A stretch of DNA of 64,000 nucleotides, taken from Antedon mediterranea (lineage: Eukaryota > Animalia > Echinodermata). The notes under the pieces are model-generated. The model was not told the DNA's origin and made no database searches. It was given only the letters and a program-made list of their open reading frames with translations. Of the stretch, positions 15,889 through 59,658 are shown piece after piece. A program made the position numbers and the translations under genes. The stretch is from NCBI RefSeq assembly GCF_964355755.1, contig NC_092680.1:9858001-9922000 (forward strand). Direction: 5' to 3'. Positions within the stretch are counted from its first letter, which is position 1. The number at the start of each line of letters is the position of its first letter.

Positions 15889-15892
15889 TACA

Positions 15893-23391: not shown

Positions 23392-23478
23392 TCCCTCGAG
23401 CCGGATTTGAACCAGCGACCTAAGGATACCAATAATTAGCTCTACAGTCCTCCGCTCTACCAACTGAGCTATCGAGGG
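23392..23478 (-). tRNA. trnY: tRNA-Tyr(GTA) with 14-nt intron, intact
   Basis: Perfect acceptor stem CCCTCGA/TCGAGGG, canonical A and B boxes, intron AGCTAATTATTGGT region after anticodon, TTTT terminator. Confidence 0.93.
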
Positions 23479-23482
23479 TACA

Positions 23483-23730
23483 CATTGGTAAATATGTTGC
23501 ATACCTAAGCAAATTATTGGTAAACATGTTGAATACCTAAGCACATATTGGTAAACATGTTGAATACCTAAGCACATTATTGGTAAACATGTTGAAAACC
23601 TAAGTACATTATTGGTAAACATGTTGAATACCTAAGCACATTATTGGTAAACCTGTTGAATACCTAAGCACATATTGGTAAACATGTTTAATACCTAAAC
23701 ACATTATTGGTAAACATGTTGAATACTTAA
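23483..23730. repeat. Minisatellite (same unit as 15893-16110), ~8 copies
   Basis: TTGGTAAACATGTTGAATACCTAAGCACA tandem array. Confidence 0.9.
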
Positions 23731-23782
23731 TTTTAAAGATATATGAGTTTTTCAATCAAAAATAAACAATTACACAGAAACT

Positions 23783-23855
23783 AGGTTCCGCCCGGGCTCG
23801 AACCGAGGACCTTCTGCGTGTAAAGCAGACGTGATAACCACTACACCACGAAACC
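23783..23855 (-). tRNA. trnV: tRNA-Val(TAC)
   Basis: GGTTTCGTGGTGTAGTGGTTATCACGTCTGCTTTACACGCAGAAGGTCCTCGGTTCGAGCCCGGGCGGAACC; full cloverleaf; atypical T discriminator. Confidence 0.82.
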
Positions 23856-24639
23856 ATTTACAAGAACAATGTTGGTTACACAAAGTTTTTCAATCCATTT
23901 AAATGACAAATAAACATGTGTAAAAAGTGATAATCTACTTTACAATTTTTTTTTTAGTTTGAGAGAGTTTATTAATTAGAGGGTTAGGTTTTCAATATTT
24001 ATGTTTTATTACTTATGTTTTTATCAAGAAAATATCATAGTTGATAAAACTAAGCCATCAGACAGATAGATGCACTATAATTAGACTAATAACGAAGTCA
24101 CATACATGACCAAAATATGTGAGTACAGACACTATCCCAACATCTCCAAACATCAAAATCAGTAGGTGAGAGGATGCATTCCCCGTATGGGTAATGCATC
24201 ATTTCACCACCAGAATCCTTCATCAACAACAGTCATCCTCCAAGCACAAGAGGAACATAACACAAAATTATGTGCAACATCAAAACAGTTCAAGACATGT
24301 ACACCAGTGCATTGAAATCCCTCCATCATGCCTTCAACAAACACTGCATGTTAGCAAAAGTAATTTTACCTGGTCATTTTCATCTTTTAATTATTGTGCA
24401 GCGGTACAACATCTATAAATATACGGGGTAGCCCCTTTCATCTGGCCAGATATAAACACTGATGGAGGAGGACGGACAGAAAGTATATCAACATTTGTAT
24501 CCGCAATTGATATTCAGATTACTATAACGATAGTGACGTGATTATGTATGCATCATTACTATGTATTAATATGGCGGTAGAAATCGCAAAGATAGCTTAC
24601 CTATTTCCTAAATTAACTGTCTCAATACCTTTCATAATA

Positions 24640-25814: not shown

Positions 25815-26496
25815 CGTCGAATGATAACAGATTCAAAAGAGTTACTAATACAATTAATAATATTTGCGTCGTTTATCATACCGAAACTTCCCCATAACCT
25901 AGCCTTCGCATTGAACGCGAAACATGTTATCCTTAAAATGTAAACTACGAACGTTTTTTTCTGATAGCGCACTATGGGAGTGTCATTTCTGGGTAACTGG
26001 AGCTGCCATTTATAATTAATGTGCAAGAGTACTATTTCCAGTCATCTAGAGGTGTCATCAAACTAAATTCTCCTCGCCACAGGTCCTACCATGGGGAGTT
26101 CAAATACTTCGTGTCAATCTACCTCCCACTCCCTCTCCAAAAAATGGTGTAGTCTCATGCATTTTAAATATCACAGGTTCGTAACTACACTAGAGTAAGC
26201 AGCAGGAACACACTTTAGATTTCTGGTTAATTTTGAAAAATAAGTTCTATGAAGGTAAATATAACAATGAATATTCTGAACAAATTTAGACAAGTTTGAG
26301 GTATATATGACAAGTAGTTTCCGAGACTTTTTAGAATAGTAAAAAATTTGCTAACAAGCCCTAATTAATAATACTACTAATAATAACATATACACTATTA
26401 AAATAATGGAAACAATAATAATAAACCTGTTTGAAATTCATTTGATGAACATTAAATGTTATTGAACATTTACAATGTTGCTATATTATTATAATA

Positions 26497-29400
26497 TTTC
26501 ATAAGGACCAAGTTGATGCACATAACAAATGTTTCAATTGCAATGAAGAAGGTCATAAAGCCAACCAATGCCCCAAAAATGTCCACATTACATGCCGAAA
26601 ATGCGGGAAAAATTGCCACGTCGAAAAACTCTGTGCGGTCGAAACTACAGGAAATAAACCCACCATCAATCTTACAAATGAAATACGACCAAACGAAAAC
26701 AACGATAACGTTCAACCGACAAAAGCAAATAGTACCACGCCAATGTCGGATTCATCAGTATCTACACCTAAGCATGATGACCCTCTTTTCTTGCCATCCG
26801 CAGGTGAACGTTTCATTCAGGAAATGTTTGATAAAATAGTAAAAGAAAAAGATGATTCGAACAACAATACAAAGATGAGTGATGATATCACCAACGAATC
26901 AATCATAGAAGAAAGTGAAGAAGACAAAGAATCAACCAAGAGAGATGAAATGCCCGGTCTCAGACCTGCTAGTAGCAGCAACAACGCTCAAAGGAAAATA
27001 ACCTCGTTCATCGTGCCACAAAGTCACCCTGAGCAAAAAGACAATATACAAGAACAAGAGCAAGAAAAAGAAAAAGAGGATTCAACGGTTCCCGCCCAAC
27101 AATGTGAACAGAAACCAAATTCATCTTCAAGTGCGCAAAAAAAAAAACAAAAAAGAAAAGAACACAACGAGGGAGCAGCAAGTCATCATAAATCAATTGT
27201 GTGAGTTACTATATATATAACTCATTTATAATTGTCAGATTAAGCTTTCGTAAAACTGTTTTGTAATAAAATAAAATTTAATATCCAACAAAAAATGTTT
27301 AAAATGAATAGAAAACCAAAAAATAATGCCCTACATTTAATCTCATTAAATGCAAGAGGTATACAAGAAAATTATAAAAAAAAAAAAGTGTTTAACTATT
27401 GCGAAGAGCAAAATGCAGACATAATATTCCTACAGGAAACGCATTTCGATAAAAAAAAAATCTATAGATTTGTTGTGGAAAGGCGAAAGCTACCATAGTT
27501 TCGGCACAACAAACAGTAGAGGCGTTTTAATACTGTTTAAAACAAGGTTTGATGTAAAAAACATAACATGTAAATATATTGACGAGGAAGGTAGAATTCT
27601 CATAGTATGTATTATTCATAATAAGACCACCTTTAACCTCGTAAATGTTTATGCTCCAAACAATTACAAGGAAAGAGCAATATTTTTTAAGAAACTTGAA
27701 AATAAGATAAACACATTATGTGATGTAACTAATGAATACATAATAGTAGGAGGTGACATGAATTGCATATTAGATAAAAAGGTAGATCAGAAAAACAGCG
27801 TGAATAGCTAAGATAAATCACCAATAGCATAAAAAAAATGCATGAATAAGTTACATTTAATTGATATATGGAGACAAAGTCATAAAGATAAATCCCAATT
27901 TACATGGAGAAGAAAGGATACGTACAGAAGGTTAGACTTATCAAACCCCCCTTTATAAAAATGGTGACATCATTTCTACAGATATTCGACCTTGTATCTT
28001 CTCTGATCATCAAGCTATATCTTTGAAAATAATAAATGAGGAAAAAAAGAGAGGTCCAGGATTCTGGAAACTAAACAATAAAGTCTTGAATGATGAAATA
28101 TATGCGTTAAATGTTATACACATAATTGAAAAGACAAAAAAAATGAATATAACTTGAAACCTGACAGCTTATGGAATACTTAAAAGTTAAAATAAAAGAG
28201 TTCTCATGTAAATATTGTTCAAGAAAAAAAATTAAAAACAATTATACTAAAAAAAAGTTGATTAAAGAAGTTAGCGAACTTACAAAAAAACTTGATTCAA
28301 CCTACAGCCAAGAAACTGACTGTCAATTAAAAAATAAAATAGAACAACTTGATGAAATATACACATCTGAGGCCCAAGGAGCCCAAATCCGTTCGAGAAT
28401 AGAATGGTTTGAAAAGGGAGAAAAAGTTTTTTCTCGGCCTTGAAAAAAATAATGGAAAAAGAAAACAAATTACTACCCTATTAAAAACTAATGGAAAGTA
28501 CACTACCGACACTAATGAAATTTTAAGAGAACAGGTCAATTTTTACAAAAACTTATATTCCAAAAAAATATATCTGTTAATAATATAAATAGCTATCTTG
28601 GAAAATCAAAATCCAAAACACTTTCATTAAATGACAGTATGCAATGTGAAGGTTTACTAACTATAGATGAATTAACAATTGCTCTTCATAAAATGCACTT
28701 GAATAAAAGTCCGGGGTGTGATGGACTAAGTGTAGAATTTTACAAGTTTTTTTGGAATCATATAAAAGAAATGTTATGTGCATCCTTAAATTATAGCTAC
28801 AATAAAAGTAAATTACCTAAAACACAAAAAAAAAGGGAATAATAAAATTATTATTTAAAAAAGGAAAAAGAGAATCACTAACAAACTGGAGACCAATTAC
28901 ATTATTAAATGTTGATTATAAAACAAAAAGTAATTGCCCCAATTATTGATTCCGACCAAAAAGGTTATATCAACGGACGATTTGGAGGAGAAAACATGCG
29001 TTTAGTCGAAGACGTTCTTTTTCCAGACCAATACATTTAACTTACCCGGAGCAATAGTTTTTCTAGACTTTGCAAAGGCCTTCGATTCATTAGAAAGAAA
29101 CTTTAATTTTAAATGCCTCCAAAAGTTTGGCTTTGGAATGTCATTTACAAAATGGATTACATTGCTATATACAGAAACAGAATGTATTATAGAAAATAAT
29201 GGATGGCTATCTGAAAGTTTTCAGATGGAAAGTGGAGGAAGACAAGGATGTCCACTGTCTGCTCTTTTATTCACACTTGCTGTTGAAATAATGGCTAATA
29301 ATATAAGAGATAATCCTCTATGTAAAGGCATTATGTTACCATGTAATATAGATAATGTAAATGAAAGTACTGTTTAAATTTGTCAATTAGCAGATGACAC

Positions 29401-31187
29401 CGTCTTATTTACACAAGACGAGACTAGTTTAAAACACTTTTTGAAAGAAATAGAGGTTTTTTGTAATATATCTGGATTAAAATTAAATAAAGAAGAAAAC
29501 TAAAGGAATGTGGATTGGTTCCAGCAAAAATAATGAAACAGCACCTTTTAATCTAACATGGACGAAGAATCCAGTTAAATTCTTAGGGATATATGTCGGC
29601 TACAATAAAAGAGTGTGCTAAGAAAAGAACTGGAATGAAAAAATCACTAAACTTGATCAGATCAGAAGAAACCTCTCTTTTTTTGGAAAAATAATTATTA
29701 TAAAAACATTTGCAATTTCCAAACTTGTATATAATGCCAGTGTCATAAATGTGCCTAAATATGTATTCCCAAAAGTAGAAAAGGTATTATATAGATTTTT
29801 GTGGGGTAAAAAAAGAGAAAAAATAAAAAGAAAAACCCTTATAAATTCAATATTAGAAGGTGGTCTAAATATGGTACATCTTAGCACAATGGTTAGTTCG
29901 TTAAAACTTAGTTGGGTTAAGAGATTGTTAAGCCCTGACCCAGGTAAATGGAAATATTTACCAAAACATTATATGTATCCATTTGATTATACTGTCAATA
30001 CTAGTGAACCCAATTTTGAAAGTCATGTAGAACTGAAATGTATGCCTGAATTTTATAAAGAAATGTTAAAAGTGTTAGTGTATTTTAACAATATAAGTAT
30101 TACATACCCGCAAAATGTAAACGGAGTTGAAAAACAACAATTGTGGGAAAACACTTTTATAAAATGCAGTGGAAAAACATTATATTTTAAAAGTTGGATA
30201 CAAGCAGGGTATAAAACAATAAAAGATATAATATATGTTAATCACAGATTAATGACTCCGACAGAATTGATACCCACCCTTTCAGAGCAACAAAATGGAA
30301 TAATTGAATATTTTAAGATTGTAAATGCAATTCCCTCAAATTGGAAGAAAATATTTATAAACAATGAAAAAGAGAGAGACAAACAAGAAATACAAACAAT
30401 ATATTGTAAAAAGTATAAAAATTCATCAACAATATATCTATTACTCCATTTTGTCAATCGAAATGGGAAACAGAATTTAGAAATGTGAACTTTAAGTGGA
30501 ATGAAATATGGTTAAAAAAAGTATATAGCATGAAACATGTAACAAAAGTAGCACAATTTAATTTTAAACTGCTACATCGGATTCTGGCATGTAAACAACG
30601 AATGAAGATATGGAAAATATCTCCTGAAGAATGTGCAAACACTGCCAAAACGAAATTGAGACAGACAAGCACATGCTTTTGAAATGTAAAAGTATCCAAA
30701 AAGTATGGACAAAATTCAATAACATGATTCTAAAATGCTATACACTTGAAGAAACCGTACGTGATTGGCTAGACATTGTTATTGGAACAAAAAGTGAAAA
30801 ATGTCAATGAATTATTATCATTGTTTACTTTTTGTATTTATAATACGAATTTTATTAAATCAATAGAAAAGCATTCAAAAATTAGATCAAAGGTCGTCTG
30901 GAACTTGTTCCGATTTGAGCTAAAAAATCTTATACAGAATCAATATGCTTGTAACATAAACAAGGCAAAAAGGAAATGGGGTAACTTAAAAAGAAAATTA
31001 TTAACTTGTATTTCTTAAAATTACATGTATTATGTTTTAATTTTTTCATTATTATTTTAATTTTTATTTATATATATATATTTAAAACATTTTTTTAATG
31101 ACATTTTATACAATTTCTATATATAACTACACTGTGTAATATGAAGAATGAAATAAAAGTGGGTTGGCCCCACGAAAGAGAAAAAAA
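26497..31187 (+). mobile_element. Second Tx1-clade LINE (different family), 5'-truncated in ORF1, degraded
   Basis: TSD ATATTATTATAATA (26483-26496 / 31188-31201); knuckle CFNCNEEGHKANQC; APE SLNARGI, FLQETH, NVYAPN; RT RQGCPLS, LADDT; many frameshifts; GTGGG..CCCAC hairpin then poly(A). Confidence 0.9.
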
Positions 31188-32736
31188 ATATTATTATAAT
31201 AATACACTAGCTGTTAGTTGTTATTATACAAATAATGAATGTTTATAAGTGCAAATAATGGCATGAGGTCAATGATGAAAGGTTATTTTTCAACGAGGCG
31301 CGAGCCGAATTGAAATATAACTTTTCATCATTTACTAAATGCCATTATTTGTACCATTACACGAATATAAAACATTCATTATTTGTTTTATATAACATCT
31401 AAAATAGATTCCTTTAATTTGAATCAAATAAATTAAAAGGTGGGCCTAGCCAAGGCCCACATTTGATTTGGCCCAACTGGGCTACATTGTAACCCCAAAG
31501 CAATACGAAACAGGCAACTGGAACTATAGGCTATTAGACCGGCAGCCCAGAGACATTTGGTTAGATGAGCTAGGTACCAACATCTGACTATTTGAGTGTG
31601 TTGGGGGTCACTTGAAGTGAATGAAAATGGGAGTCTGCCGGGTACCCCCTGCTGCGTCTAGACCGGGGGGACCCCGAAACGTGCTAAAAAATCGGCACAG
31701 GTTAGATGAGAGAGATACCACCTAATTTTACCACCATGGGATGCCCATTGGCATCCTTATAACAGTATCACAAACGACAGACTTTTTCTCTGCTGCAAAA
31801 GGCCCGCCAGACCCCCCGAGGGAGGGCCTAAAATGGGGTTAGCATAGATGAGTGAGGTACCACTCAAAATCAATTCCAAACGAACAAGTTGTGTTAATAC
31901 AATACAAAATGGATAACAACAGACTAATTGTCTGCTGCACCGCCAGTGCTAGACACCCTAAAGTTAGACTAGAGGCCCCCCTTCCCCCAACTAACCCAGC
32001 TTAGATATTGTAGATACCACCAGCAACCAATGTTATATGATTTAGCACATTGTAAGCAATACCAAATGACCTATTACAGACTATCTGAACACTGCCCTGG
32101 CCCTGGCAGACCCCTCTAAAGTTAGACTAGAGACCCCTATTTCCCCAACTAGCCCAGCTTAGATATTGTAGATACCACCAACAACCAATGTTATATGATT
32201 TAGCACATTGTAAGCAATCACCAAATGACCTATTACAAACTATCTGTACACTGCCTTGGCCCTGGCAGACCCCTCTAAAGTTCGACTAGAGACTCCATTC
32301 CCCCAACTGGCCTAGCTTAGATATTGTAGATACCACCAGCAACCAATGTTATAATTATGATTTAGCACATTTGTAAGCAATACCAAATGACCTATAACAG
32401 ACTATCTGTACACTGCCTTGGCACTGGCAGACCCCTCTAAAGTTCCCCCATTTACCCCAAGTATATAGCCTACCTTAGATATTGTAGATACCACCAGCAG
32501 CAAAAAAAACCACCCAAAACAACATGTTTAATTGAATAAAGTTTAACTTTAATCGAACTAACACAAAACAATTGAAAATATATCACACCAATGACGATAA
32601 AATGACCATTACCATTCTAAAGGGAAAAATAGTTTAAGAGTTTCAATTAAAACTTATATATTATAAGCCAAATATATATAACAAGTATGGATTCGGGTAA
32701 ATTTAGCATTCCTTGCCTTTGGATGTCAAAGATACA

Positions 32737-32766
32737 GTGGTTAACGCCACAAAAGAGAAAAAAAAA
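32737..32766 (+). mobile_element. 30-bp Tx1 3'-end micro-insertion with TSD
   Basis: GTGGTTAACGCCACAAAAGAG(A)9 flanked by (AAA)GATACA duplication; absent from the opposite arm (~35720). Confidence 0.75.
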
Positions 32767-32907
32767 GATACATCCGTCTGTAACTTTTGGACATAGCTTA
32801 GTAATCACCCTAATCAAATTCAGGATTGTAGTAACTTAATCTAAAGTAATTTGATTAATTAATAGTGGGTAATTTTAAATGCTGTATATTATAATCTTAA
32901 TCCTGTA

Positions 32908-32943
<36 letters not shown>

Positions 32944-35066
32944 AATCCAAAGGCAAATTACTGAAAAAATGACAATGCTGTGGGTATCAGTGGCTGGATC
33001 TCAATGGAGATACAATCAAGAGCAAATATATATTTTTATAAAGTAGATGGAACACGGACGTCTATTACACGGTGTTTCACGTTAAACGATCTTCAGATAG
33101 ACTGAACAATACCGTATCTCGATCGAAAAAAATATTTTTAAAAAAAATTATAAATATATATAATTTTTTTTATGTACTTTATTTATGTAGATATGTAGTA
33201 CTGTATCTATTAAAAAAGGTATTTGAACAAAATTAGAGATCTCAATGAGATCCAAATTGACAATTGCCGCAAAATCCTCACTGAGTTTGACGTTGAAATT
33301 CACTCTAGAACTAAGAAGTTGAAAAGAGAACTTCCTGCATCATAGTTTCAAAACAAACTCAGGATTATCGCCAATGACTGCCGTAAACAATCAACGGTAA
33401 TGGCCCGAAGGGAACATCACAAATTTGGTCTACCTGCAGACTTGGTCATTTCAACACAAATGACTCTACCTTCGGATGACTTCAGGGCTTTTAGGAAACC
33501 CTGCAGAAGGTTCGTTGGGACATATAACAAGAATCAGAGCAACACCTCTGATTCAGTTGTTGAAATTAATTGTCGACTTTCCGAAGGAGAGAAAAAACTT
33601 CTTTCCCGAGGACTTAAATTCTGCCCAAAACCAAGGCAGGTCGGCGCACAACAACTATCTTTGGATATAGAGTCTTTTTCTAGAAGATTACGATTACATG
33701 AATATTTTGCTGATTCAGACAGCAGCACCACGCAAAACGAAGGCAACGTTAACAAATTTAAACCAAAAAGTTCCTAGAATCCACCTAAAATTCGTTGTCC
33801 AGCTTTAGAAACATTTATCCAGGCTATTGAGGAGGATGTACAAAACTACGTCCCGAGTCCAGATAAACGTGACAATCTCAAAACAAGAGAGGCAGGCCAT
33901 TGCCAAATTGCGTCAGAGTAATGATATCACCATTAAACCCGCTGATAAAGGTTCTGCCACTGTTGCTATGGACATCAAATTTTATTAAGAGGAATCCTTA
34001 AGACAGCTTCATTATATATCGTAAACTCACAACGGAACCCACCCCGGAAATTGCGGATAAGGTGGCAAAATCTGTTTCTGTGATGGTAAAAAAAAAACAC
34101 TCCATCGATCCTAAGATTTACAGTTACCAAATCCACTAGTAACGTTGATTTTGTGGACACTATAGTGACCATAGAAAATGGTACTCTCAAAAACTGACCT
34201 ATTCCGTAAACCCACTGATAAAAATATGTACCTGCTCCTTAGCAGTTGTCATCCCCAACACTGTACTAAAAACATACCGAACAGTAAAGCATTACCTATC
34301 AGACGTATCTGTTCTTCAGATTTAGATTTTCAGAATCGTACCGAAGAACTAACCGGACATCTCCGGAATAGAAATTACAAACCTATCACCCTAGGTTGCC
34401 TCCATTACGGGGCTATTAATTTATTGAGAAACATATGCCCATTCTACAGTCCACAGAACGTCTCAGGACTGTTTTTCCGGAACCACCCATTATTGCATTT
34501 CGTAGACCTCCCAACCTTCGTGATATATTAGTCAGATCCAAATGTAAGAGTGAAATTAACTCTCATGACAGTCAAAATTTGGGCAGTCACCTTTGCGGCA
34601 AATCTTGCAAAACTTGTTCATTGGTTGATTTTACTGAAAAATTTAAGAGTAACTAAACTGGCCGCATTTTTCGGATAAGACAATCAATTAATTGTCTAAC
34701 CAAAAACGTCATTTATCTCATATACTGTAATATTTGTGGCAAACAGTACGTCGGAGAAACAAAAAACACTCTCCGTATGAGAATGACACAATACAGATCA
34801 GCTATCAACACATTAAAGCTTGTTCAACCTGTAGCCGAACATTTTAATTCAGCTGGTCACTCGGTAACAAATTTCAGAGTTATTGCAATATTCCATGTGT
34901 CAAATGGAGCGACAAAACTCGCAAAGACAAGGAAAAACACTGGGAATTACAACTTAAAACCACAAAACCTTTTGTACTTAACATTAGAAACATACTCCCA
35001 GGTTGGTAAAATTATTCCATTGTCTACCAAAATTTAAGTTTCAATATTAACCACCATTTAAGCTGT

Positions 35067-35429: not shown

Positions 35430-37639
35430 TAACGTTTCTGGCTGTTTTACTTTATCCTTTTGATTTAGCTTTTCACTTTTTTTTTTGTATCTCCATTGTG
35501 ATTCAGCCAGATACCCACAGCATTGTCATTTTTTCAGTTATTTGCCTTTGGATTTATATATATAAATATATATAGAGGATTAAGATTATAATATACAGCA
35601 TTTAAAATTACCAACTATTAATTAATCAAATCACTTTGGATTAAGTTACTACAATCCTGAATTTGATTAAGGTGATTACTAAGCTTTCTCTTAAAATAGG
35701 TTGCAAGAGTTACAGACGAATGTATCTTTGACATTCAAAGGCAAGGAATTTCAGATCCTCACAATTCTAGCAGGAATGCTAAATTTACTCGAATCTGTAC
35801 TTGTTTATATTTGGCTTATATAAGTTTGAAGTGAAACTCTTAAACTATTTTTCCCTTTAAAATGGTAATGGTCATTTTATCGTCATTGATGTGATATATT
35901 TTCAATTGTTTTGTGTTAGTTCGATTAAAGTTAAAATTTATTGGTATCTACAATATCTAAGGTACATGTAGGCTATATACTTGGGGTAAATGGGGGAACT
36001 TTAGAGGGGTCTGCCAGTGCCAAGGCAGTGTACAGATAGTCTGTTATAGGTCATTTGGTATTGCTTACAATGTGCTAAATCATAATTAAAACATTGGTTG
36101 CTGGTGGTATCTACAATGTCTAAGCTAGGCCAGTTGGGGGAATGGAGTCTCTAGTCGAACTTTAGAGGGGTCTGCCAGGGCCAAGGCAGTGTACAGATAG
36201 TTTGTAATAGGTCATTTGGTGATTGCTTACAATGTGCTAAATCATATAACATTGGTTGCTGGTGGTATCTACAATATCTAAGCTGGGCTAGTTGGGGAAA
36301 GAGGGGTCTCTAGTCTAACTTTAGAGAGGTCTGCCAGGGCCAGGGCAGTGTTCAGATAGTCTGTAATAGGTCATTTGGTATTGCTTACAATGTGCTAAAT
36401 CATATAACATTGGTTGCTGGTGGTATCTACAATATCTAAGCTGGGTTAGTTGGGGGAAGGGGGGCCTCTAGTCTAACTTCAGGGTGTCTGGCACTTGCGG
36501 TGCAGCAGACAATTAGTCTGTTGTTATCCATTTAGTATTGTATGAACACAACTTGATCGTTTGGAATTGATTTTGAGTGGTACCTCACTCATCTATGCTA
36601 ACCCCATTTTAGGCCCTCCCTCGGGGGGTCTGGCGGGCCTTTTGCAGCAGAGAAAAAGTCTGTCGTTTGTGATACTGTTATAAGGATGCCAATGGGCATC
36701 CCATGGTGGTAAAATTAGGTGGTATCTCTCTCATCTAACCTGTGCCGATTTTTTAGCACGTTTCGGGGTCCCCCCGGTCTAGACGCAGCAGGGGGTACCC
36801 GGCAGACTCCCATTTTCATTCACTTCAAGTGACCCCCAACACACTCAAATAGTCAGATATTGGTACCTAGCTCATCTAACCAAATGTCTCTGGGCTGCCG
36901 GTCTATATATAGGCTAATTATGTTTTTTTCATCGATTCCACGTCTTGTAGGGATGTTCCCATTAATTAATCAAAATCCTAAAAACGATAATTTAAATGCC
37001 TTTTTGAATGAAATTAGGTTAGTACATATATATCTCCAAATCGTACACAAAAATCTGCTGCTGCATATTGGTGTTTACAAACAAAACAGAGCCAAGACAA
37101 CAGGTGGCGCTGTTGTATTTCACAGTAATTTGTACACTAGATTTTTTTAATTCACGAAACGTTTTTTTTTCCGTACACAAAAATGTTTAAAAGTATTATT
37201 AAACGATCGTATAAAATGTGCGTACTATTGCACGCCATGTGACCCACGAATTTATTTAGGTGTTATATAAAAATACTAATACACGAATTAACAACATTGT
37301 AAATACTCACTATTTTAATACCGAGCCTACACAATTACCTACCCTAGAGTATCATATTAAAGTAACTCATAAAATAGTACCACGTCAATAATTGACAGCG
37401 ACAACATGTTTTACTTTATAAAAAAAACTACTTGAATCAAATCCTAAATATAAACATCATTGAGGGTACTTTGTATGGTACTTTAACATTCTGGTGGTGG
37501 CACCAGCATATTGTATTCCAACAGCCCAACAACTCCTGAAAAGCTATAAAAATGAAAAACACAGAATCAAGATCAATTGCTGTGTTGGAAATTCATTAAA
37601 TACTGGATGCAGAGAGACGATTCAGGTAAGTATTACATC

Positions 37640-38948: not shown

Positions 38949-40519
38949 GTGAGCCCTACTGATTAACAGATTTCAACCACGCTCAGAAAACTTGTCATCA
39001 AACGTATGTCAATTATATGAAAGCGTCGCAATTGAAGTCATTTTCTACGTTTTAAATTCATTGATATACAAAGGATTGAAAGAATATTTAACATAACATA
39101 CGTCTGGTACAGGTAGGCTAAATGCTTATTGTAAGTACGCAATGTATGCGGTCAGAAACAAAAATAAATACAGACCATTTTGCACTATATTTTAAACACA
39201 CTTGCAAGTTTTAGGTCCACTCTGTTATTTACGAATTCGAAAGTATTGCTAGAACATAATATTGAAAAGAATTTGAAATAATGATATGTCCGTAGATATG
39301 CAAATAATTAATTATTATTTAAGTTAATGATTACCATACAGTACAAACAAATGTTTATTACTGAAATACAATGTTAATACACAAAATAAATAAAATAAAA
39401 CATTAGAAGCTTTTATTATCTTTACATGTAATTAGGAAGCTTATGGAAGAATTATAAATTACTCCATGAGCTTGTATAATATACATTACCACTTATTTAA
39501 CTATAGAACTTTCATTACAAAAGTTTACTACTTGGATTGGAGAGACAAAAATCGAAAACTAATATACAACTATATGGGCACAAAATGTTAAGGCGTGTAA
39601 CGCGTTATAACAATTACGTTACTATAATAATCAATACACTGTAAATTAGCAGACTCAGGTGGTCGAACGTTGACAATCCCGAATACGATGATACAATGGG
39701 ACAGATTGTATGTACAGTAGCCGGCATATAAAGTGCATGATGTAAGCACTTCAAAGTAAAATTAAAATACATTTACATACTTTTTGATTGTACAACTTAT
39801 GAAATCCAGAGTAAACAAATTATAATTATAATTACGATTCTGTACCAACTATAGGCTGGTAATTATCCGGCGGATTTGTACAATAATGAATGAATACTAC
39901 GTTCAAACCTCGGGTATAACATGAAATTGTTTGGGACGTTCAGGGCTTGAGTATGCCCAAGTTAAAACGTGGTAGCATTATAAGTTTATAGTAATAATCG
40001 CCTTACATAAACGAATAATTCGCATTCCCGTTGTCAAAATACAGGTGGTATAACAGATGTACGATTGAAAGAAAACGAATACTGTAGGCTAAACGTAGGG
40101 CCTAAACTTCAAATAGAAAGATATAGCAATATAGTTATATAGCCTACATAAAGCATCGTATAGATGTTTATTATTACAAATGGAAGTAAACTGAAGTAAT
40201 CCAAGACCACGTGGCTTTTCTTTTACTTAAAAATTGTGCCTACCTATCGACTCACCTCTCTGATATCTCAGGTAATTTTAAAAATATCAGTCATCATTCA
40301 ATTTATATTTGGTTTACGAACTGTTTATATAGACCATGACCATGTCCGTTGCAAGATTGATTTTGAGTGCACAATTTACAACAACAGAGATTGTACCACG
40401 GCGTGCATAGAGGACAAACTTTTTGTGTTTGCCTTTTATACATATAGATTTAGGTTCTATTCTTTATGGACCTTGTACTTAAGCGTGATGAACCACGCTC
40501 GTTAAAGATGTTAACTTAT

Positions 40520-40557
40520 TTTAACTTTTGTATTTTACTTTTAATGATTACAGAACC
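40520..40557 (+). other. Probable splice acceptor 4 nt upstream of the ATG (5'UTR intron)
   Basis: T-rich tract + TTACAG|AACC-ATG; same arrangement CAACAG|AATC-ATG in the paralog at 59626-59638. Confidence 0.65.
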
Positions 40558-43500
40558 ATGTGGTGTATTCGAGTTGCTCTACTTTCTATTTTGTTCCTGG
40601 TAGCTGTGAAAGGAGATTCAAGAACTATAAAAAACGACGAAAATACAATCAAGGCAGTTTCAAGGCCTGATGTAAACTTGGATGTGAAAGCAGACCTATC
40701 GAGTGTTAGCCCTCTAAGTGCTATCACATCAGATGAGACAGACAGAGTAAAATTACGTTGTCGTAGACGGAGGAGAGTACGTCGATGTCGTAGGCGACAC
40801 CGTCGTTGTGTAAGACGACGTTGTCGCCATTGCAAAAGACGACATAGACGTTGTCGGCGCTCTATAAGACGACGTTACCGTTGCAGAAGACGGCGTTGTA
40901 GGCGATACCGTCGACAATATCGTCGCTCGATTTGCCGACGACGACGCCGTTGCAGAAGACGATATAGACGCGTTCGTCGATGTATAAGACGGCGTAATCG
41001 TTCCAGAAGACGTCGCTGTAGGCGATACCATCGACGTTATCGTCGCTGTGTTAGGCAACGACGACGACGTCAACGCAGAATACAATATAGGCGTGTTCGT
41101 CGATGTATAAGACGGCGTTACCGACATCGTTGTAGGCGATACCATCGACGATATAGAGTTTATTGGCGTCACAATCGTTGCTATATGTTAGTCCACCGAG
41201 GCAGTTGCGTTCGTCGATACCGCATTAAATACAGGTACTATCGACATAAGTTATACATCTATTACAGGCGAAGATGGCGCTGTGTTCGACGATTTAAACG
41301 TAATGGAAGATGGTATACGTACTACAGAGGTCGTTACGTTATAAGACGTCGTTTTAGGAGATGCTACCGTAGAATTTATTGGTATAGAAACCGTTGTTAC
41401 CTGTTGATCCGATGTGGTCGTCACATTCGACGATATCGTCTTAGATACAGATACCGTCGCCACATATTGTATGTTTATTACAGAAGACGATGGCGCATTG
41501 TTCGACGTTATAGACGTCATGGGAAATGGTATACGTACTACAGAGGTCGATACGTTACCAGACGTCGTTTTAGGCGATGTTACCGTAGAATATATTGGCG
41601 CAAAAACCGTTGTTACCTGTTGATCCGATGTGGTCGTCACGTTCGACGATATCGTCTTAGATACAGATACCGTCGTCACATATTGTATGTTTATTACAGA
41701 AGACGATGGCGCATTGTTCGACGTTATAGACGTCATGGGAAATGGTATACGTACTACAGAGGTCGATACGTTACAAGACGTCGTTTTAGGCGATGTTACC
41801 GTAGAATATATTGGCGCGGAAACCGTTGTTACCTGTTGATCCGATGTGGTCGTCACGTTCGACGATATCGTCTTAGATACAGATACCGTCGCCACATATT
41901 GTATGTTTATTACAGAAGACGATGGCGCATTGTTCGACGTTATAGACGTCATGGGAAATGGTATACGTACTACAGAGGTCGATACGTTACAAGACGTCGT
42001 TTTAGGCGATGTTACCGTAGAATATATTGGCGCAAAAACCGTTGTTACCTGTTGATCCGATGTGGTCGTCACGTTCGAAGATATCGTCTTAGATACAGAT
42101 ACCGTCGCCACATATTGTATGTTTATTACAGAAGACGATGGCGCATTGTTCGACGTTATAGACGTCATGGGAAATGGTATACGTACTACAGAGGTCGATA
42201 CGTTACAAGACGTCGTTTTAAGAGATGTTACCGAAGAATATATTGGTACAGAAACCGTTGTTACCTGTTGATCCGATGTGGTCGTCACGTTCGACGATAT
42301 CGTCTTAGATACAGATACCGTCGCCACTTATTGTATGTTTATTACAGAAGACGATGGCGCATTGTTCGACGTTATAGACGTCATGGGAAATGGTATACGT
42401 ACTACAGAGGTCGATACGTTACAAGACGTCGTTTTAAGAGATGTTACCGAAGAATATATTGGTACAGAAACCGTTGTTACCTGTTGATCCGATATGGTCG
42501 TCACGTTCGACGATATCGTCTTAGATACAGATACCGTCGCCACTTATTGTATGTTTATTACAAAAGACGATGGCGCATTGTTCGACGTTACAGACGCAAT
42601 CGAATATTGTATATCCTATATCGAGGTCGATATGTTATTAAGCGATCTATACCGTCCCGTTCAATCAAAGTAGTACGGAAACACACTTACTATATGTGGA
42701 AACGAAACGTATTGTACCGTTGTACTAGACTTGGTCGCGTTTACCGTAGATACCGGGTCCGTTATCGATGGCGTAGTGGGCGACTGTTTGCATACATTCG
42801 ACGCAGATGGTGCATGGTTCGTAAATTTAATCAACATGGTGCACGCTATGCTTTCCGTGGAAGGCGATATGTAGTGAGTGGACACTGGCATCCAGGTTTT
42901 TATTTCTACTTCACACAGAATAAATTGTACATGCGTGTTCGCTGTGGCAGACTTCGCAATAAGTACCGCGTAAGATATAGATGGCGAGGTCAATCCTTAT
43001 ATTATTTTGACGGCGGTAGATGGCAATCTTTGTCTAAATACAGTCAATATGGCGCACGTTATAGATTTAATGGAAGACAATTTGTTATTAATGGTCACTG
43101 GCGTCCTCGATTTTATTTCTCTTGGAAGGGAACAAGCCTTTACTTGATGTTTCGCTGTGGTAGACAACTTGGAAAATATCGCGTAAGTTACAGATGGCGT
43201 GGACGCACTTTATATTACTTCGATAGCGGTAGATGGAGTGTAGTCCGTAAATATACGACTAACGGCATTAGTTATGTTTTCTCTGGTGGAAGATTTATTA
43301 CAAAATCGCGTTGCTCCCGTAAGTTCTACTTAAAAAATCGGCGACTTTATGTACGAATCCAATACGGAGGACGCGTTACTAGTTATGTAGTAAGTTTTAG
43401 GTATAGTGGTCGACGGTTGATGTATTGGTGGGGTGGCAGATGGTATACCGTTAGTAAATACAGCAAAAATGGTGTAATTTACTGCTATAGTAATGGTCGC

Positions 43501-43572
43501 TATACACAAAGCTCATCGAAGATCCATACTATTCATACATATACAACTCACTATACGCTAAACTTCAAATAA
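40558..43572 (+). CDS. Uncharacterised secreted Arg/Tyr/Trp-rich tandem-repeat protein precursor (~1004 aa)
   Basis: 3-kb open frame; signal peptide MWCIRVALLSILFLVAVKG; acidic pro-region; Arg/Cys tract; 216-bp coding repeats with diverged in-frame copies; AATAAA at 43665 with downstream T/G-rich tract; paralog at 59636. Confidence 0.85.
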   Translation: MWCIRVALLSILFLVAVKGDSRTIKNDENTIKAVSRPDVNLDVKADLSSVSPLSAITSDETDRVKLRCRRRRRVRRCRRRHRRCVRRRCRHCKRRHRRCRRSIRRRYRCRRRRCRRYRRQYRRSICRRRRRCRRRYRRVRRCIRRRNRSRRRRCRRYHRRYRRCVRQRRRRQRRIQYRRVRRCIRRRYRHRCRRYHRRYRVYWRHNRCYMLVHRGSCVRRYRIKYRYYRHKLYIYYRRRWRCVRRFKRNGRWYTYYRGRYVIRRRFRRCYRRIYWYRNRCYLLIRCGRHIRRYRLRYRYRRHILYVYYRRRWRIVRRYRRHGKWYTYYRGRYVTRRRFRRCYRRIYWRKNRCYLLIRCGRHVRRYRLRYRYRRHILYVYYRRRWRIVRRYRRHGKWYTYYRGRYVTRRRFRRCYRRIYWRGNRCYLLIRCGRHVRRYRLRYRYRRHILYVYYRRRWRIVRRYRRHGKWYTYYRGRYVTRRRFRRCYRRIYWRKNRCYLLIRCGRHVRRYRLRYRYRRHILYVYYRRRWRIVRRYRRHGKWYTYYRGRYVTRRRFKRCYRRIYWYRNRCYLLIRCGRHVRRYRLRYRYRRHLLYVYYRRRWRIVRRYRRHGKWYTYYRGRYVTRRRFKRCYRRIYWYRNRCYLLIRYGRHVRRYRLRYRYRRHLLYVYYKRRWRIVRRYRRNRILYILYRGRYVIKRSIPSRSIKVVRKHTYYMWKRNVLYRCTRLGRVYRRYRVRYRWRSGRLFAYIRRRWCMVRKFNQHGARYAFRGRRYVVSGHWHPGFYFYFTQNKLYMRVRCGRLRNKYRVRYRWRGQSLYYFDGGRWQSLSKYSQYGARYRFNGRQFVINGHWRPRFYFSWKGTSLYLMFRCGRQLGKYRVSYRWRGRTLYYFDSGRWSVVRKYTTNGISYVFSGGRFITKSRCSRKFYLKNRRLYVRIQYGGRVTSYVVSFRYSGRRLMYWWGGRWYTVSKYSKNGVIYCYSNGRYTQSSSKIHTIHTYTTHYTLNFK
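41152..43515 (+). repeat. Coding tandem repeat, 216-bp (72-aa) unit; ~6 near-identical central copies plus ~5 diverged
   Basis: Alternate-frame ORFs recur at 41414, 41630, 41846, 42062, 42278 (216-bp spacing). Confidence 0.95.
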
Positions 43573-43664
43573 AAAACAGCGTAAAACGATAATTAATACA
43601 ACATACATAGTATTGAACGTTAATATCTATGGTAGGCCTACACATTTTATATCATCAATCAGTC

Positions 43665-43670
43665 AATAAA
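43665..43670 (+). terminator. Putative polyadenylation signal of the Arg/Tyr-rich gene
   Basis: AATAAA ~90 nt after the stop, followed by TGTTTGTATTTTTTGTTTTGTTG. Confidence 0.55.
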
Positions 43671-45881
43671 TTACAAACAATTTAAATATGTTTGTATTTT
43701 TTGTTTTGTTGTACACCTTACAGTTAACTTTCAGACATATTTTTTAAAATTCAACAATAATTATATAACTTGGAACCCCATTTTTTGACATCAAAGTTTA
43801 ACCAATTTTAATTTACGGAAGTGGGATATGGGCCTTTTCGAATTTATCACTAATTGATCATTTACATACACGTTTTTTAAGATTTATTTTAGGCATTGGA
43901 AACAGCGCACCCAGCGTGACTGTCAAATCAGAATTAGGCAGACTATCCGAGTCGGGTTGGTGAACATCAGTCCAAAATACGCAAATTTTTTTCCAAAATA
44001 CGTCAACTTGAGGGCGCTATACTAATCCAAAATACGCGAGTCTTTCCAAAATACGTCGACTTGAGGGCGTTATTCATTTTCCAAAATACGTGAATTGTCC
44101 AAAATACGTAAAATTGAGGGCGCTATTCATTTTCCAAAATACGCGATTTGTCCAAAATACGTCAATTTGGGACTGCTAGTAATTTTCCAAAATACGTCAA
44201 CTTGAGGGCGGCAAACTTGTTTCCAAAATACGAGAGCCTTTCCAAATGTATCATTGAGAGTGTAAGGTAAAATTACAATTTAATGTATTTCTTAGAATAA
44301 AACAAACAAGTACATTTTAGTTATAAATGAAATTATTGGAAGGCAGAATTTTTTGTAAATAAAATGTCATAGAGTAGCCAATTATTATTTTTCAATGTAA
44401 TCATTTATTACTGAATAAAAACAAATATGTGTGTCAATAGACACAGTGCCTATAATATACATTAATAATGTCTGAACGATGTACGATTGCATTGCCAGAC
44501 GTAGCTAGTTTAAATGAGGCATAAACCGGCTACAAAAACAGCATGTACAAGTATAGTCATAGGTGTGTGTTATATATTTGGTGATCTACAAAATTGATAT
44601 TTTTCCCGAGCTCGACAGACCAACATCGCTTTCAATTTAATGTACTTATGGTCTAATACAAGTTATCTAATCTGAATTCTAACACAATAGTTAGTTTATA
44701 TAATAAAAATAATAAAAAGGTATATGGTATTGTAATTAAAATAATATCAATAATTGGTTAGAAGAAGTAAAGTAATTATTTTTTGACACGAAAACGTCGG
44801 CAAAATACCCATAGTTAAAACAGTTAGTTAAAGTTCAAAATGGTTAGGTTAAAGATGTATTGTCCCCCAAAAAATGAAAAATAAAGATGAAAAAAATCAA
44901 ATTTTGAATAGACCGTTTTGTAGTTAACATAAAGTTATTCACTTCCACCGAAAAAAAATCCGAAAAAAATATTGATTTCGCTTATAAAAAAATCAAAATA
45001 AATTTACCATTTTTTCGAACTCATCGGCTCAGAAATTAGGCCGGTAGAGCTAACTCATACATATGCATGATATGTTAATGAGCATCCACACAGCAGAGAT
45101 CTGATCTATCTAACAATGGACGATGCACGTTGTATGGTACAACAACACCACCAGAGATCGACGCGACTGTGGGTTTCCCTGGGATGGCTGATCGTATAAA
45201 TATGTAAAGCTGAGCTGTTAATTTGTCGGTATGTAGGCCTAGACGGTTATTTTAAATATAATAATAGGATCAGGTGCCGTTTTCGGCCACCTCGACTTAT
45301 ATGGACTATACCATTATTATGGTAGGGGTGTGGTGTATTATGTTAGCTACTTAATCTTAGCTACATTCCGAAAATACAGCCAGCTTGCTGTACCATATAT
45401 ATTTACAGTTGAAGCTTGTTTAACTAATTTTTATGATAAAAATAAAACAAACATTTTTCAGGGAAAATGGTTGCAATACAAGCCTGAAATTGAGAACCTT
45501 CCAGCAGCACTGTACAAGTAGACAGAGGGGAAAAGCCAGCTTAGCCATTTTACAACACAAACAAATGTTCTCTGTACTGTAGTAAGTCAAATATTTATTT
45601 TCTATTTTTATAAGTTATAACATTATAAGTAATGTGTTTTAATTACCATAGAAAGGTAGTATACTTATTTGACTATGTCAAAGTAAGCAATTTCACTAGC
45701 CCAATTTTGCACTAAATATGCATGATCTACTCAACTCAACTCAACGTAAACATTTATTTTCTTTCTTTCATTCAATAATAAAACAAATGAATAAGGTATT
45801 AAAAAAAGTAAGTACGAGTTACAAATAATACATTTCATTAATATAATATATAAACACGACAGGCAAAGAACATTAGTTCTA

Positions 45882-46079: not shown

Positions 46080-48222
46080 TATAAATAAATAAATTATTTT
46101 ATTTTTTTAATATATTGATAACATCAAATAATACCTTATATAAAAAGAACTGCAACATGTGGAAAAAAAGATGGCAATCCACGAAAGGCAAGCCTGTGAT
46201 GTGGAAGCCCACACAATGAAGTAATAAATAAGTTAGACAGAACGACAAACACATAGGTACAGAACAAACTTACAGGACACGAATCACAACACAAACAGAC
46301 ATCAACAAACAGAACATGCACAGACACACCCGAACACACATCACCAGGGGAAAACATTAATATTTAGAAATGAGGAAAGATTTGAATGTTTTATTAAATA
46401 AAAATTTAGTAGCCGAATGTTTAATTTGAAAAGGAATTTTATTCCAATTCATGGGACCAGTATATCTGATTGAATGTTTAAAGGCAGTGAGTCTTGGTTT
46501 TGGCAAATGTAGGTCTTGTGCAATACGAGTATTATAATTATGAACTTCGTGATTAAATTTGAAGAGATGAGATGAAGGAGAATCAGCTGTCAAAGAGTCA
46601 TAAATAAATGACATTTGTTGAAAAAGATTGATATCAGCTAATTTAAGAAAATTATGTACGGAAAAAATAGGGGAAGTATGAGAAAGACGATTCGAATGGG
46701 TAATAAGCCTAATGGCCTTTTTTTGTAAAATAATAAGTCTATCAATAGATGTCTTGTAATTATTAGCCCAAACAATATTGCAATAATTTAGGTAGGGCAA
46801 AATAAGAGAGCAATATAATAAACGCAAAATTGTTAAAGGGATATAGTGAGAAAGCCTATAGATAATTCCTATATTTTTTGAAACCTTCGAAGCAACCGAA
46901 TCAATATGACATTTCCATGTTAATTTAGAGTCAAGGAAAACTCCAAGAAACTGGACGGTATCAGTGAGCGGAATATTAATATTATTTAACAAAATTAAGT
47001 TATTTCCAAGAATGAAGGATTTGTTAGGACTGTGAAAAATAATAGCACTGCATTTTTTAAAGTTTACCGAAAGTTTATTAGCTGAAAAATATTTTAAAAC
47101 AGACTTAAGTTCGTTGTTAACAACATCAAATAGTGTATTAATGTCACTATGCGAATATAAAATAGTGGTGTCATCAGCATATAAGAAAGACGAGAGAATG
47201 GAGGAATTATAAAAATCATTAATATAAATTATGAATAATAGAGGGCCAAGCAATGACCCTTGTGGAACGCCACACGAGATGGACCGGAAATCCGATGTAT
47301 TATTATTGAATTTTGTGCACTGAGTGCGGTCAAGAAGATAGCTCTTGAATAAATCAAGTGCAATCCCTCTAACGCCATAGTGAGAAAGCTTAGATAACAA
47401 GATGTTGTGGTCAATGGTGTCAAAAGCTTTCGATAAATCAATCAAAATTTCCATGGATAATTTATTTTCTTCAAAAGCATCTAAAATATAGTTAGTCAGC
47501 TCAATAAGTGCCATTGAGGTGGAGTAGCATTTTCTAAATCCAAACTGATGCTGAAAGAGGACATTATTCTTTTGAAGAAAGGAATAAGTTCGATCATATA
47601 TAATGCGTTCAAATAATTTCGAAAAAATAGAGAGAATAGAAATAGGGCGGTAGTTGCTGATTTCAGAGGTGTTACCGGATTTAAAGACGGGAGTTACAAT
47701 AGCGCGCTTTAATTTGTCTGGAAAAATACCGCATGAAATCGAAGAATTAAAGATATGACAAAGGGGTTTGAAAATAAAATATGCAGATTGTTTAATAACA
47801 AAAGTATTAAATCCATCTAAACCAGGAGCTTTGTTGTTGCCAAATGAGGAAATAATTTTGAGAATTTCATTTTCATCAACTGGGTTTATAAATAGAGACT
47901 GCGCAACGGAATTGGGTAAATAGTCAGTAATACTAATATTGCGATCATGTGGAATTTTACTGGCAAGTGTGGGTCCAATGTCAACAAAAAAGTCATTGAA
48001 GCTATTAGCAATAATCTTTGGATCGCTAGTTAAGGTACCATTACAATTAATACGTTTTACATTGTTGCTTTTGCTGGGAGTAGTATGAAGTACATTTCTA
48101 ATTGTAGACCAAGTTTTTTTAATATTGTGTTGATGTTTGGTGAAGAGCTTAAGAAAGTAATCAGATTTTGAAGAGCGAATTATAGTAATGAGCAAATTAC
48201 GATATTGTTTAAACATCGTTTC
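46080..48222 (-). mobile_element. L2/Crack-like LINE, 5'-truncated; RT ORF 46357-48216 uninterrupted
   Basis: YRPISIL, QFGFR, DLSKAFD, GVPQGSLLGP, LYADDT, YCNIVW; 3'UTR with AATAAA and (TTTA)n. Confidence 0.9.
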
Positions 48223-50349
48223 ATTCTATTTTTTCCAGATTTTCATACTTTGCTTTTACTTTTTTTAAAGACGTTGAGCTGATGAAGACTGGAACAGAGG
48301 TCACCCAAAGACAACAATGATAGACTCGGTATTGGAATATGATTGGATATTGCAGGAAAAATATTTCTGACTATCCTGCTGCATTCGGCCAATATGTTCT
48401 TGTCCAGCTTGTAAAATATTGTATAATTTTTTTTGTATTATATGTACAGTATATTATTTTGTAAACATAACATTCAATAAATAAAAAAGAACTACTACAA
48501 CAGTACACAGGATAAATTCTTCAAATTTACTTACACTTCATAATTTTACTGTAAATATTACAGTGCAAAAGTAGTTAATAAAATATATATATACAGTATA
48601 TCTTATTGAATCACTGTATTGTTTTTTGTGTCAATTTGTCTACTAATTATCAATGTGTTGATTGTGGCAGTAATTACGACAGCTATAGTCTTCTAAGATC
48701 GCTAACATCCATTACAAAGTGTCATTTTAATAGTAAGAAACGTTTCAATAAATTGTGAATGTTGCCACTGTACGATACATGTTATGTTTCTCACTACTTG
48801 GTCTTATTGTTCAATCAATCAACCTAAAAAAAAAAAGAAATTTGTGTCAAAATATCTGCATAAAATGTTTATTTGCGGAATGTTTATTTGAACCTATTGC
48901 ATTTGATACAGTAAATATTTTTTAAATATTGCATCAGTAAAACATCCAAAACAATATTTAGATTTTCTTTTTTTTTAAATTTTCACTGCCGAATAGATAG
49001 TTGAAATCTTTAAAAATTAAACCAATTCATCGTGATTAAAACAAAAATACATCCCTTCTGGTGGTGGTCTACTGTAGCCCTAGCTAGCAGTGTACTGCCT
49101 AGGCCTACTACACTCTACTTCTAGAGACAGAAGTAGGCAGCAGTTAGGCTACTCGAGACTGTCAGTGCTAGTAGTAGTAGACTAGTAGTACAGTAGCAGC
49201 AAATTCGGGCCTAGCTAGGCCTCTCCTGTTAGCGAAACAAAAACTCACCTAAATGAATAAGATTCAACATCAAAGTTACCAACTGTAATTCTAACTTAGC
49301 ATTCTGCTAGCTATAGTTTTCGTGTTTTCTTCAAGATTCGTCTCGCATCACTACTCGACTCTCTCGCACGCATGGCATTGCTATCGTTGTTGGCTGTTGA
49401 TTTGGAAAGCGTCATCATCCACACGATGTATCCATACAATATGAATATTTATGAGCTAACTCAGGTCAAGGGTTAAATTAAACCGGAACACATTTGTCTT
49501 CCAGACAAATAGCTTCCGGTTGGTTAATTTTTGCATTAAATTGCGATTTTCCCGTGTAAAAAATTATTTTTTTCAATCCAAATTGAGGTCAAAGTGAATA
49601 ACTTTTATGTGCAATTAAAATGGCCTATTCAACAAAAATATCGAAAAAAAAATTTTTTTCAGGGGGACAATACATCTTTAAGCGAGAGAGATCTAAATGT
49701 AATTTTATAGTATTTTTGAAAACAGCCTCGCGTTTTGAAGTTTCGAAGATTTTTTTTGGAAAATTCGCGTATTTTGGAAAACTGTGCCTTCAAGTTGGAG
49801 GGTATGTCGGATAACTTTCTTTTTGTAGAAAATTAATAGCGCTACAAAACTTGTTTTAAGTTGGATAATTTTCCTAATTTAGAAAATTAATAGTAGCCTC
49901 AAGTTGAAGTATTTTGGAACAAGTGCCACAACAATTATATTGGAGAAATTGCGTATTTATGCAAATAATTAGCGCCCTCAAGTTGACGTATTTTGGAAAA
50001 TTACTAGCGGTCCCAAATTGACGTATTTTGGACAAATCGCGTATTTTGGAAAATGAATAGCGCCCTCAGGTTGACGTATTTTGGACAATTCGCGTATTTT
50101 GGAAAATGAATAGCGCCCTCAAGTCGACGTATTTTGGAAAGACTCGCGTATTTTGGATTAGTATAGCGCCCTTAACTTGACGTATTTTGGAAAAAATTCT
50201 GCGTATTTTGGACTGAATTTCACCAACCCTATTGGAGTCTATCCTTACAAATTAAGTGCTTTATTTCTATTATTCGCTTTATGTATCATTGAAATGGATA
50301 AAAATAGATTTCTTTTTAAATAATTATACGTTTCAACTAAGAAAAACTA

Positions 50350-58865: not shown

Positions 58866-59658
58866 GTATTAACCGCCCTTCACACCATTTAATAAATGTA
58901 ATACCTCAGCAAAGTACCAAAACAATGCAGGAGCACATGAATTGATTTATCAATGACCAATGTTCGAGAAGATATTCAAAGATCCCAAGCACCTCTACTT
59001 AATAAAGACAGTATTAATAATTTTTGACATTGTAGACTTTCTCCAGACACCATTTCATTTTCATAATGTTTTGATTGTTAACAACAAAAAATGTTATTTC
59101 AGATGGCTTCATTGGTAAACTTATAACTATGTTACAGAATAACATCAATATAAATATAAAGATGTCAAGTTACTAAGACTAGTTATTAGTTATTAGTTAT
59201 TTATACCAAAGGGTAAACTAATCTATGCATCTCTGTATTAAGTCAGATAATACAAGAAACAAGCAAAAATGTTTTAAAAATTCTATATTAAGATTGTTTC
59301 GCAGTGTTTTATTTTATGTAACGGCCTAGCGATGACGTTTAATCAAGTGCGTATTACCCTACCTATGATATTTAGGTCCAACTGTTATATAAAGAACAAA
59401 ATTATTAAGAGCTAGGCCTAAATTTGTTATTCTTAAGAGGTCGGAACGAGAGTGGTTATATTTCTAGCTGCATTTTTGCCTTCACCCGATGGCATATATA
59501 GATAACTTATTTTGGAATATGACGAGCATGTTAAGTTAATTTTTTCTATTCGTGGAACGTTTCACTAAACACATAAAACACAAGTTTTTATGTTTTCTTT
59601 CAATTCTTTACTTTGTGTTCTCTTTCAACAGAATCATGTGGTGGGTTCGAGTTGTTCT

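Follow-up and report, generated by a model that had tools for sequence, protein, structure and literature searches.

A 64,000-nt window of the Antedon mediterranea genome (NCBI RefSeq assembly GCF_964355755.1, contig NC_092680.1, positions 9,858,001 to 9,922,000 of the forward strand) carries, at window positions 40558-43572 on the plus strand, an open reading frame (ORF) of 1004 codons, from ATG to TAA, for a protein dominated by arginine and tyrosine. The gene is intact, real, and under selection, and its product belongs to an unnamed multi-copy family of hypercationic, Arg- and Tyr-rich proteins that are predicted to be secreted and whose repeat has a predicted fold without a match. In our favored reading, to which we assign a probability of about 0.5, the protein would be secreted as a bulk polycation, forming dense granules or a sticky coat by condensation with polyanions. 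This reading builds on the observed ORF, composition, repeat layout, selection, paralogs, and a spliced family member, and all steps of the mechanism are our interpretation of them. About one third of the protein is Arg and one sixth Tyr, and with its net charge close to +350 it lies far outside the echinoderm proteins described, within the searches made. A protamine-like block joined to a β repeat with no significant sequence or fold match is an unusual combination, and the folding, storage, and export of such a polycation by a cell is a question in itself.

The ORF is not a product of chance, because stop-free runs in 200 base-shuffled versions of its 3015 nt were at most 198 codons long (median 100 codons). 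The other five frames contain 18 to 87 stops across the interval. The 937 residues that follow the segment RVKLR (aa 63-67) comprise 323 Arg (34.5%), 150 Tyr (16%), 41 Cys, 33 Trp, and 6 Met (0.6%), with two Asp (aa 818 and 889) and no Glu, giving a net charge of +353 and a mass of 127 kDa. The ratio of observed to expected CpG is 1.94 in the coding sequence (CDS) versus 0.79 in the flanks, a CpG-rich coding island that results from 223 CGN Arg codons. A Thr/Ser/Val-rich ORF of 358 codons on the minus strand (41251-42327) was considered as an antisense reading and rejected as a mirror of the plus-strand gene, since its frame has 18 stops across the CDS, repeats 1 and 2 differ at 37 positions, 17 of which are third positions of the plus strand, and the related Antedon protein XP_071965392.1 (P0001) aligns with the plus strand. 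An initial annotation, made from the sequence alone, had described a 19-aa signal peptide, a pro-region with nine acidic residues, about 935 residues with only two Asp and no Glu, and a 72-aa core repeat with 28 Arg, 14 Tyr, 3 Trp, 3 Cys, and no acidic residue. This overall observation is confirmed: the pro-region (aa 20-67, 48 aa) has seven Asp and two Glu, a hand count of aa 293-364 reproduces the repeat composition, and the signal peptide is supported as a prediction by hydropathy and by conservation in relatives. The Arg/Cys block, the 11-repeat layout, the splice acceptor before the ATG, and the broken paralog at 59636-61396, all described below, were not mentioned there.

The predicted signal peptide (aa 1-19; 40558-40614) has a basic n-region, a 12-residue hydrophobic core, and small residues at positions -3 and -1. 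It is the sole strongly hydrophobic stretch of the protein (Kyte-Doolittle value of the best 11-mer, 3.06 in the N-terminal 19 aa versus 1.15 elsewhere) and is closely alike in P0001 and in the broken paralog. The following pro-segment or spacer (aa 20-67; 40615-40758) is weakly acidic, any cleavage being putative; its net charge is -1 (nine acidic residues versus four Arg and four Lys), or -4 when aa 20-62 are counted. The protamine-like Arg/Cys block (aa 68-200; 40759-41157) contains 63% Arg and 11% Cys and has an internal period of 120 nt. Its apolar residues show a helical periodicity that none of 300 shuffles reached, whereas those of the corresponding block in P0001 show a strand-like periodicity, likewise reached by 0 of 300. 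Because this periodicity differs between the two proteins, what they share in the block is composition rather than fold.

The remainder of the chain consists of 11 repeats (aa 221 to 1004) of 62-79 aa each, about 72 aa. A partial repeat (aa 201-220) and repeat 1 (aa 221-292) occupy 41158-41433 and are followed by repeats 2-6 (aa 293-652; 41434-42513), five 72-aa units that are 93-100% identical and represent a recent tandem expansion; the repeat region holds a 216-nt tandem array of 6.2 copies with 96% matches. Repeats 7-11 (aa 653-1004; 42514-43569) are older, diverged units, 30-49% identical among themselves, with less Arg and more Gly, Ser, and Phe than the core repeats. AlphaFold2 modeling of one repeat (aa 803-873) from an alignment of eight repeats gave an all-β prediction with eight short strands. 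The predicted local distance difference test (pLDDT) score was 80.9 for the best model and 50-58 for the other four, and four repeats folded from a single sequence reached a pLDDT of 45. Alternation of Arg and aromatic residues along strands was significant in only one of the seven repeats examined, where 11 of 1000 shuffles reached the observed value, and when the C-terminal part was pooled (7 of 300 shuffles).

Repeats 1 and 2 are under purifying selection, with a nonsynonymous divergence (dN) of 0.11 and a synonymous divergence (dS) of 0.57 between them (dN/dS about 0.2; Fisher p = 4e-6). Contigs of four of the five public runs listed were compared with the window. All three forward skips in related contigs are in frame (135, 108, and 207 nt), none of the 35 + 90 contigs compared has a frameshift indel listed, and none of the 30 variant codons listed makes a stop.

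A T-rich tract ending in a CAG acceptor (40551-40553), 5 nt upstream of the ATG, forms the 3' end of an intron in the 5' untranslated region (40525-40553, plus strand). Since the acceptor lies right before the ATG, the CDS is a single exon behind a noncoding exon. In one contig of run X1, 58 nongenomic letters stand directly before 40551; at 40550, run X2 has a pyrimidine tract resembling that of an intron. The X1 contig looks like a spliced mRNA of this gene or of a paralog, with run X1 itself only guessed to be RNA and covering intergenic DNA too. A search of the 64-kb window did not recover the upstream exon; the best ungapped match had 10-11 mismatches in 30 letters. Summed contig depth in X1 is about 1500-4300 over the 3' repeats versus 18 over the 5' part and was not used as evidence, because contig depth cannot rank genes or parts of genes. 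At the other end, two AATAAA motifs, at 43568 and at 43665, accompany the stop codon (43570-43572) as candidate poly(A) signals (43568-43670, plus strand), recognized by motif only. Just upstream of the gene (39070-40399), contigs of runs X2, X4, and X5 skip 1328 nt: either the intron would be polymorphic for an insertion, or these contigs would come from a paralog that lacks it.

Database searches identified one relative of the protein. P0001 is an uncharacterized A. mediterranea protein of 342 aa in a singleton cluster; it was the one relative found by a repeat-profile search of 2896 candidates from a 5.8-billion set, and it is the sole significant relative among 1.84 billion representatives. 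The latter search gave three matches at E ≤ 0.001, two of which (P0002 and P0003) were discarded, P0002 being a TPR protein. The order of parts in P0001, from signal peptide through pro-segment and Arg/Cys block to β repeats, is that of the window protein, with 80 of 133 residues identical over the C-terminal repeats and 30 of 50 over aa 18-66. P0001 differs in having two repeats compared to 11, a Cys-richer N-terminal block with the other periodicity, a Ser/Thr tail, and a net charge of +89. Pattern searches of prokaryote and metagenome contigs gave 57 and 103 matches, none of them confirmed, and the exact window protein is absent from all sequence collections looked up. The family is apparently restricted to crinoids, the only relative found in these collections being from Antedon. 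The proposal of a lineage-specific gene unlike known families is supported by the sole relative in Antedon and by the lack of a match to a characterized family.

The window also harbors a broken paralog (59636-61396, plus strand), which begins 16 kb downstream of the 1004-aa gene and was delineated by tblastn, blastn, and translations. It consists of the acceptor and the first eight codons (59636-59659), an insertion of about 1.4 kb that splits the signal peptide (about 59660-61098), the remaining signal/pro-segment (61099-61197), and an out-of-frame piece resembling repeat 7, with a stop (61193-61396). Its signal/pro stretch is identical to P0001 at 27 of 33 positions and to the window gene at 23 of 33, so it is closer to P0001 than to the 1004-aa copy. 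Diverged contigs present in both X1 and X2 (9 differences in 228 nt; 23-26 differences in 158-180 nt) indicate that further paralogs exist. The insertion carries ORF pieces at 59989-60564 (plus strand) and 60909-61098 (minus strand), which we take from their motifs to resemble the reverse-transcriptase ends of long interspersed nuclear elements (LINEs); tblastn with a LINE of the window did not map them at E ≤ 1e-3.

Comparison with known families and folds was carried out at several levels. Pfam gave nothing above cut-off; word-based sequence searches found no new homologue, and a feature-based search of the ESM Atlas gave no new relative and structure rows of TM ≤ 0.38. PDB sequence searches gave no significant match. 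In fold searches with a one-repeat model and a poor four-repeat model, Foldseek returned no match at E ≤ 0.001 and TM-scores of ≤ 0.30, and the best of the other fold comparisons reached Z 2.7 (rmsd 3.6, 56 aligned) and Z 3.6 (rmsd 3.0, 59 aligned); these negatives prove neither a new fold nor a difference from families unlisted in the results. No description of this protein was found in the literature searched, a search that missed most subscription and older papers.

According to the favored reading, the signal peptide would route the protein into secretory granules, where it would be packed with a separate polyanion. Several hundred guanidinium groups may pair with the sulfates, phosphates, and carboxylates of mucus glycans and cell surfaces, and Arg-Tyr/Trp cation-π contacts would hold the condensate together at seawater salt. 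The Cys-rich protamine-like block could then set the condensate by disulfides, perhaps with Tyr cross-links as well, and the β-rich repeats would serve as a scaffold of variable number (two in P0001, 11 in the window protein). Composition and block order are kept across the family, while repeat number and the N-block's secondary structure vary, which argues for a bulk material. Additionally, the pro-segment carries much too little charge to mask that of the remaining chain, in keeping with a separate counter-ion during storage. A structural or glue-type role, one of those put forward in the initial annotation, forms part of this favored reading.

In its proposed action, the protein would resemble known cationic aromatic condensing secretions. 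Mussel foot proteins and the sandcastle-worm proteins Pc1/Pc2 are likewise secreted (a prediction for the window protein), repetitive, cationic, and Tyr-rich, and condensation by charge pairing and cation-π contacts is the mode of action proposed in both cases. They are mostly Lys/Gly-rich, disordered, and DOPA-bearing, whereas the window protein is Arg-dominated with predicted folded β repeats. No significant Pfam or database match to adhesive families was obtained, in searches by which low-complexity families are easily missed. Cephalopod reflectins and γ-crystallins are intracellular and Met-rich, and reflectins carry a Met-rich motif and have no signal peptide. The window protein shares their enrichment in Arg, Tyr, Trp, and Cys but has no homology to them in the searches made, contains a predicted signal peptide, and carries a far higher net charge; its six Met in 937 aa, that signal peptide, and the lack of a Pfam match place it outside the reflectins. 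Arg, Tyr, Trp, and Cys are residues tied to high refractive index (PMC11118217; 10.64898/2026.08.22.746458).

Several sites in Antedon could hold such a material. Crinoid saccules, described since the 1800s, are the leading single site, a doubtful assignment in which the protein would form the refractile granule material. Saccules line the food grooves of Antedon and are abundant, highly refractive, autofluorescent, and of no known function, with mucus, reserve, light production, and lens as proposed roles (10.1101/2024.08.14.607903). They stain nonspecifically with sense RNA probes (PMC9793003), and this fits a polycationic content because a polycation would cause such staining. The computed refractive increment is 0.210 mL/g for the window protein and 0.213 for the core repeat, compared to 0.191-0.194 for four LINE proteins of the window; of the residue table used, the Arg, Lys, Trp, and Ser values were confirmed in two sources (PMC11118217; 10.64898/2026.08.22.746458). 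The human mean is 0.1899 and the β/γ-crystallin maximum 0.2084-0.209 (PMC4047532), and the computed value of the window protein is at or above that maximum. The saccule case drawn from refractive increment and probe staining is circumstantial. Should it be correct, an Arg/Tyr block polymer with a new β repeat might have evolved independently of reflectins and crystallins, a speculative view that we hold as loosely as the site itself.

An egg-brooding glue, a larval cement, and a food-trapping adhesive in the tube-foot mucus are real alternatives, taken jointly somewhat more probable than the saccules but still less likely than not. Antedon embryos remain attached to the pinnules of the mother and the larvae have an adhesive pit (PMC11336682), so glue sites exist in this animal. 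If the protein is a glue, it would interest biomaterials research as an adhesive or flocculant that works under water and is based on Arg. If the saccule assignment is true, it would offer the first molecular handle for deciding among the lens, mucus/defense, and storage ideas, and a protein filling the saccules would make a long-open crinoid question directly testable. The sequence may also serve as a template for Arg/aromatic high-index proteins, whose design is proposed in a 2026 preprint (10.64898/2026.08.22.746458).

A number of observations weigh against the condensing-polycation reading or the sites proposed for it. Allele-like differences in the 5' half are five nonsynonymous to one synonymous among those listed, and the paralog differences listed are 16 to 8, so constraint outside the comparison of repeats 1 and 2 is weak. 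The spliced X1 contig may stem from a paralog, since its upstream exon is not in the window. The repeats appear folded and β-rich in the models, and a pure polyelectrolyte needs no fold. Staining of saccules by sense probes may reflect antibody trapping or endogenous phosphatase, and a high refractive increment cannot separate optics from glue or defense, because richness in Arg and Tyr alone gives it. Finally, processing into peptides is possible in view of 46 R-X-K/R-R sites, which run from aa 67-70 onward, with 45 of them before aa 731.

These sites lead to the rather unlikely alternative of an antimicrobial precursor, in which convertases would release Arg/Tyr/Trp/Cys-rich β-hairpin peptides that attach to microbial membranes and permeabilize them, or the whole chain would agglutinate microbes in skin mucus. 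As in prepro-antimicrobial peptides of the defensin, cathelicidin, tachyplesin, and arenicin types, a conserved signal/pro leader precedes a variable Arg-, aromatic-, and Cys-rich part, the genes have been duplicated and lost, and the composition resembles that of tachyplesin, arenicin, and protamine. The mature part of such peptides is 15-50 aa, compared to about 940 aa and 127 kDa here, and the pro-segment cannot balance the charge (-4 versus +353, and -5 versus +89 in P0001), which weakens the layout of anionic propiece and cationic mature part advanced in the initial annotation. No defined cleavage site is conserved either, as RVKLR does not fit the R-X-K/R-R consensus and is replaced by KVKLC in P0001. 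The part best kept with P0001 is the least cationic, folded-looking C-terminal repeat pair, nearly free of furin sites; the core repeats show no amphipathic alternation along strands, the observed values being reached in 684 of 1000 and 209 of 300 shuffles, and no antimicrobial peptide occurs among the PDB matches at E ≤ 10. Of the earlier interpretation, a selected, lineage-restricted, predicted secreted protein stands, and the antimicrobial layout has lost ground.

A glycan-binding repeat protein, lectin-derived or bindin-like, is an improbable alternative; its β repeats or repeat pairs would bind glycans, either acidic or rich in mannose, that are carried by eggs, sperm, microbes, or food particles, with the Arg coat adding avidity. 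Bindins vary in repeat number, and a phmmer search of the C-terminal part against the PDB gave OAA-family lectins as its top four matches, all in register with the repeat start (E 0.21-0.75). These lectins have two-repeat chains of about 133 aa, and their aromatic/Gly pattern aligns without gaps at the repeat start. The likeness is confined to about 30 residues per repeat and was not recovered by profile or Pfam searches or by fold searches with the one-repeat and the poor four-repeat model, and we regard the resemblance as a hint. A borderline match (E 7e-4) connects the repeat profile to P0003, an egg-lectin-type protein with DUF3011 (PF11218), but the kinship was rejected on a reciprocal hhalign probability of 0.2-0.9% and an hmmsearch score below the best of 500 shuffles; PF11218 has no match on the window protein or P0001. 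Likewise, the top Foldseek rows are glycan- or choline-binding β-hairpin repeats, but at E ≥ 1 and TM-scores of ≤ 0.30, and none of the matches behind this alternative is significant. A sperm nuclear basic protein of protamine type, or a nonfunctional repeat ORF, is very improbable. The Arg/Cys richness of aa 68-200 is similar to that of keratinous protamines, and the exact protein occurs in no collection. However, protamine-like low complexity is limited to that block of a 1004-aa chain, and a hydrophobic predicted signal peptide, conserved in three members of the family, speaks against a protein of the nucleus, as purifying selection, in-frame skips, and the spliced contig do against a junk ORF.

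The 64-kb window as a whole consists of AT-rich eukaryotic DNA crowded with fragments of retroelements. LINEs, in states that differ from copy to copy, lie at 5184-8888 (minus strand), 17473-22411 (plus), 26449-30488 (plus), 46357-48225 (minus), and 12080-14707 (minus). We assume these labels from motifs; the ORFs for endonuclease/reverse transcriptase span 989, 848, and 622 codons, and ORF1-like frames with zinc knuckles precede some of them. A pair of inverted repeats of 1.5 kb (31535-33015 and 35485-36905), whose copies are 90% identical and contain a 158-bp tandem unit, encloses fragments at 33346-35037 that are presumably GIY-YIG/Penelope-like, and a fragment at 63016-63610 is related to this region. 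An element pair with a 32-bp minisatellite is 91% identical (15632-16315 and 23210-23935). Copies of a 280-bp element with 53-bp tandem units form another inverted pair, 93% identical (43954-44232 and 49952-50229), one copy of which lies 380 nt downstream of the stop codon of the gene. Farther downstream, inside a high-copy repeat (45227-45461), run X1 alone showed a joint that leaves out 233 nt and has GT..AG ends.

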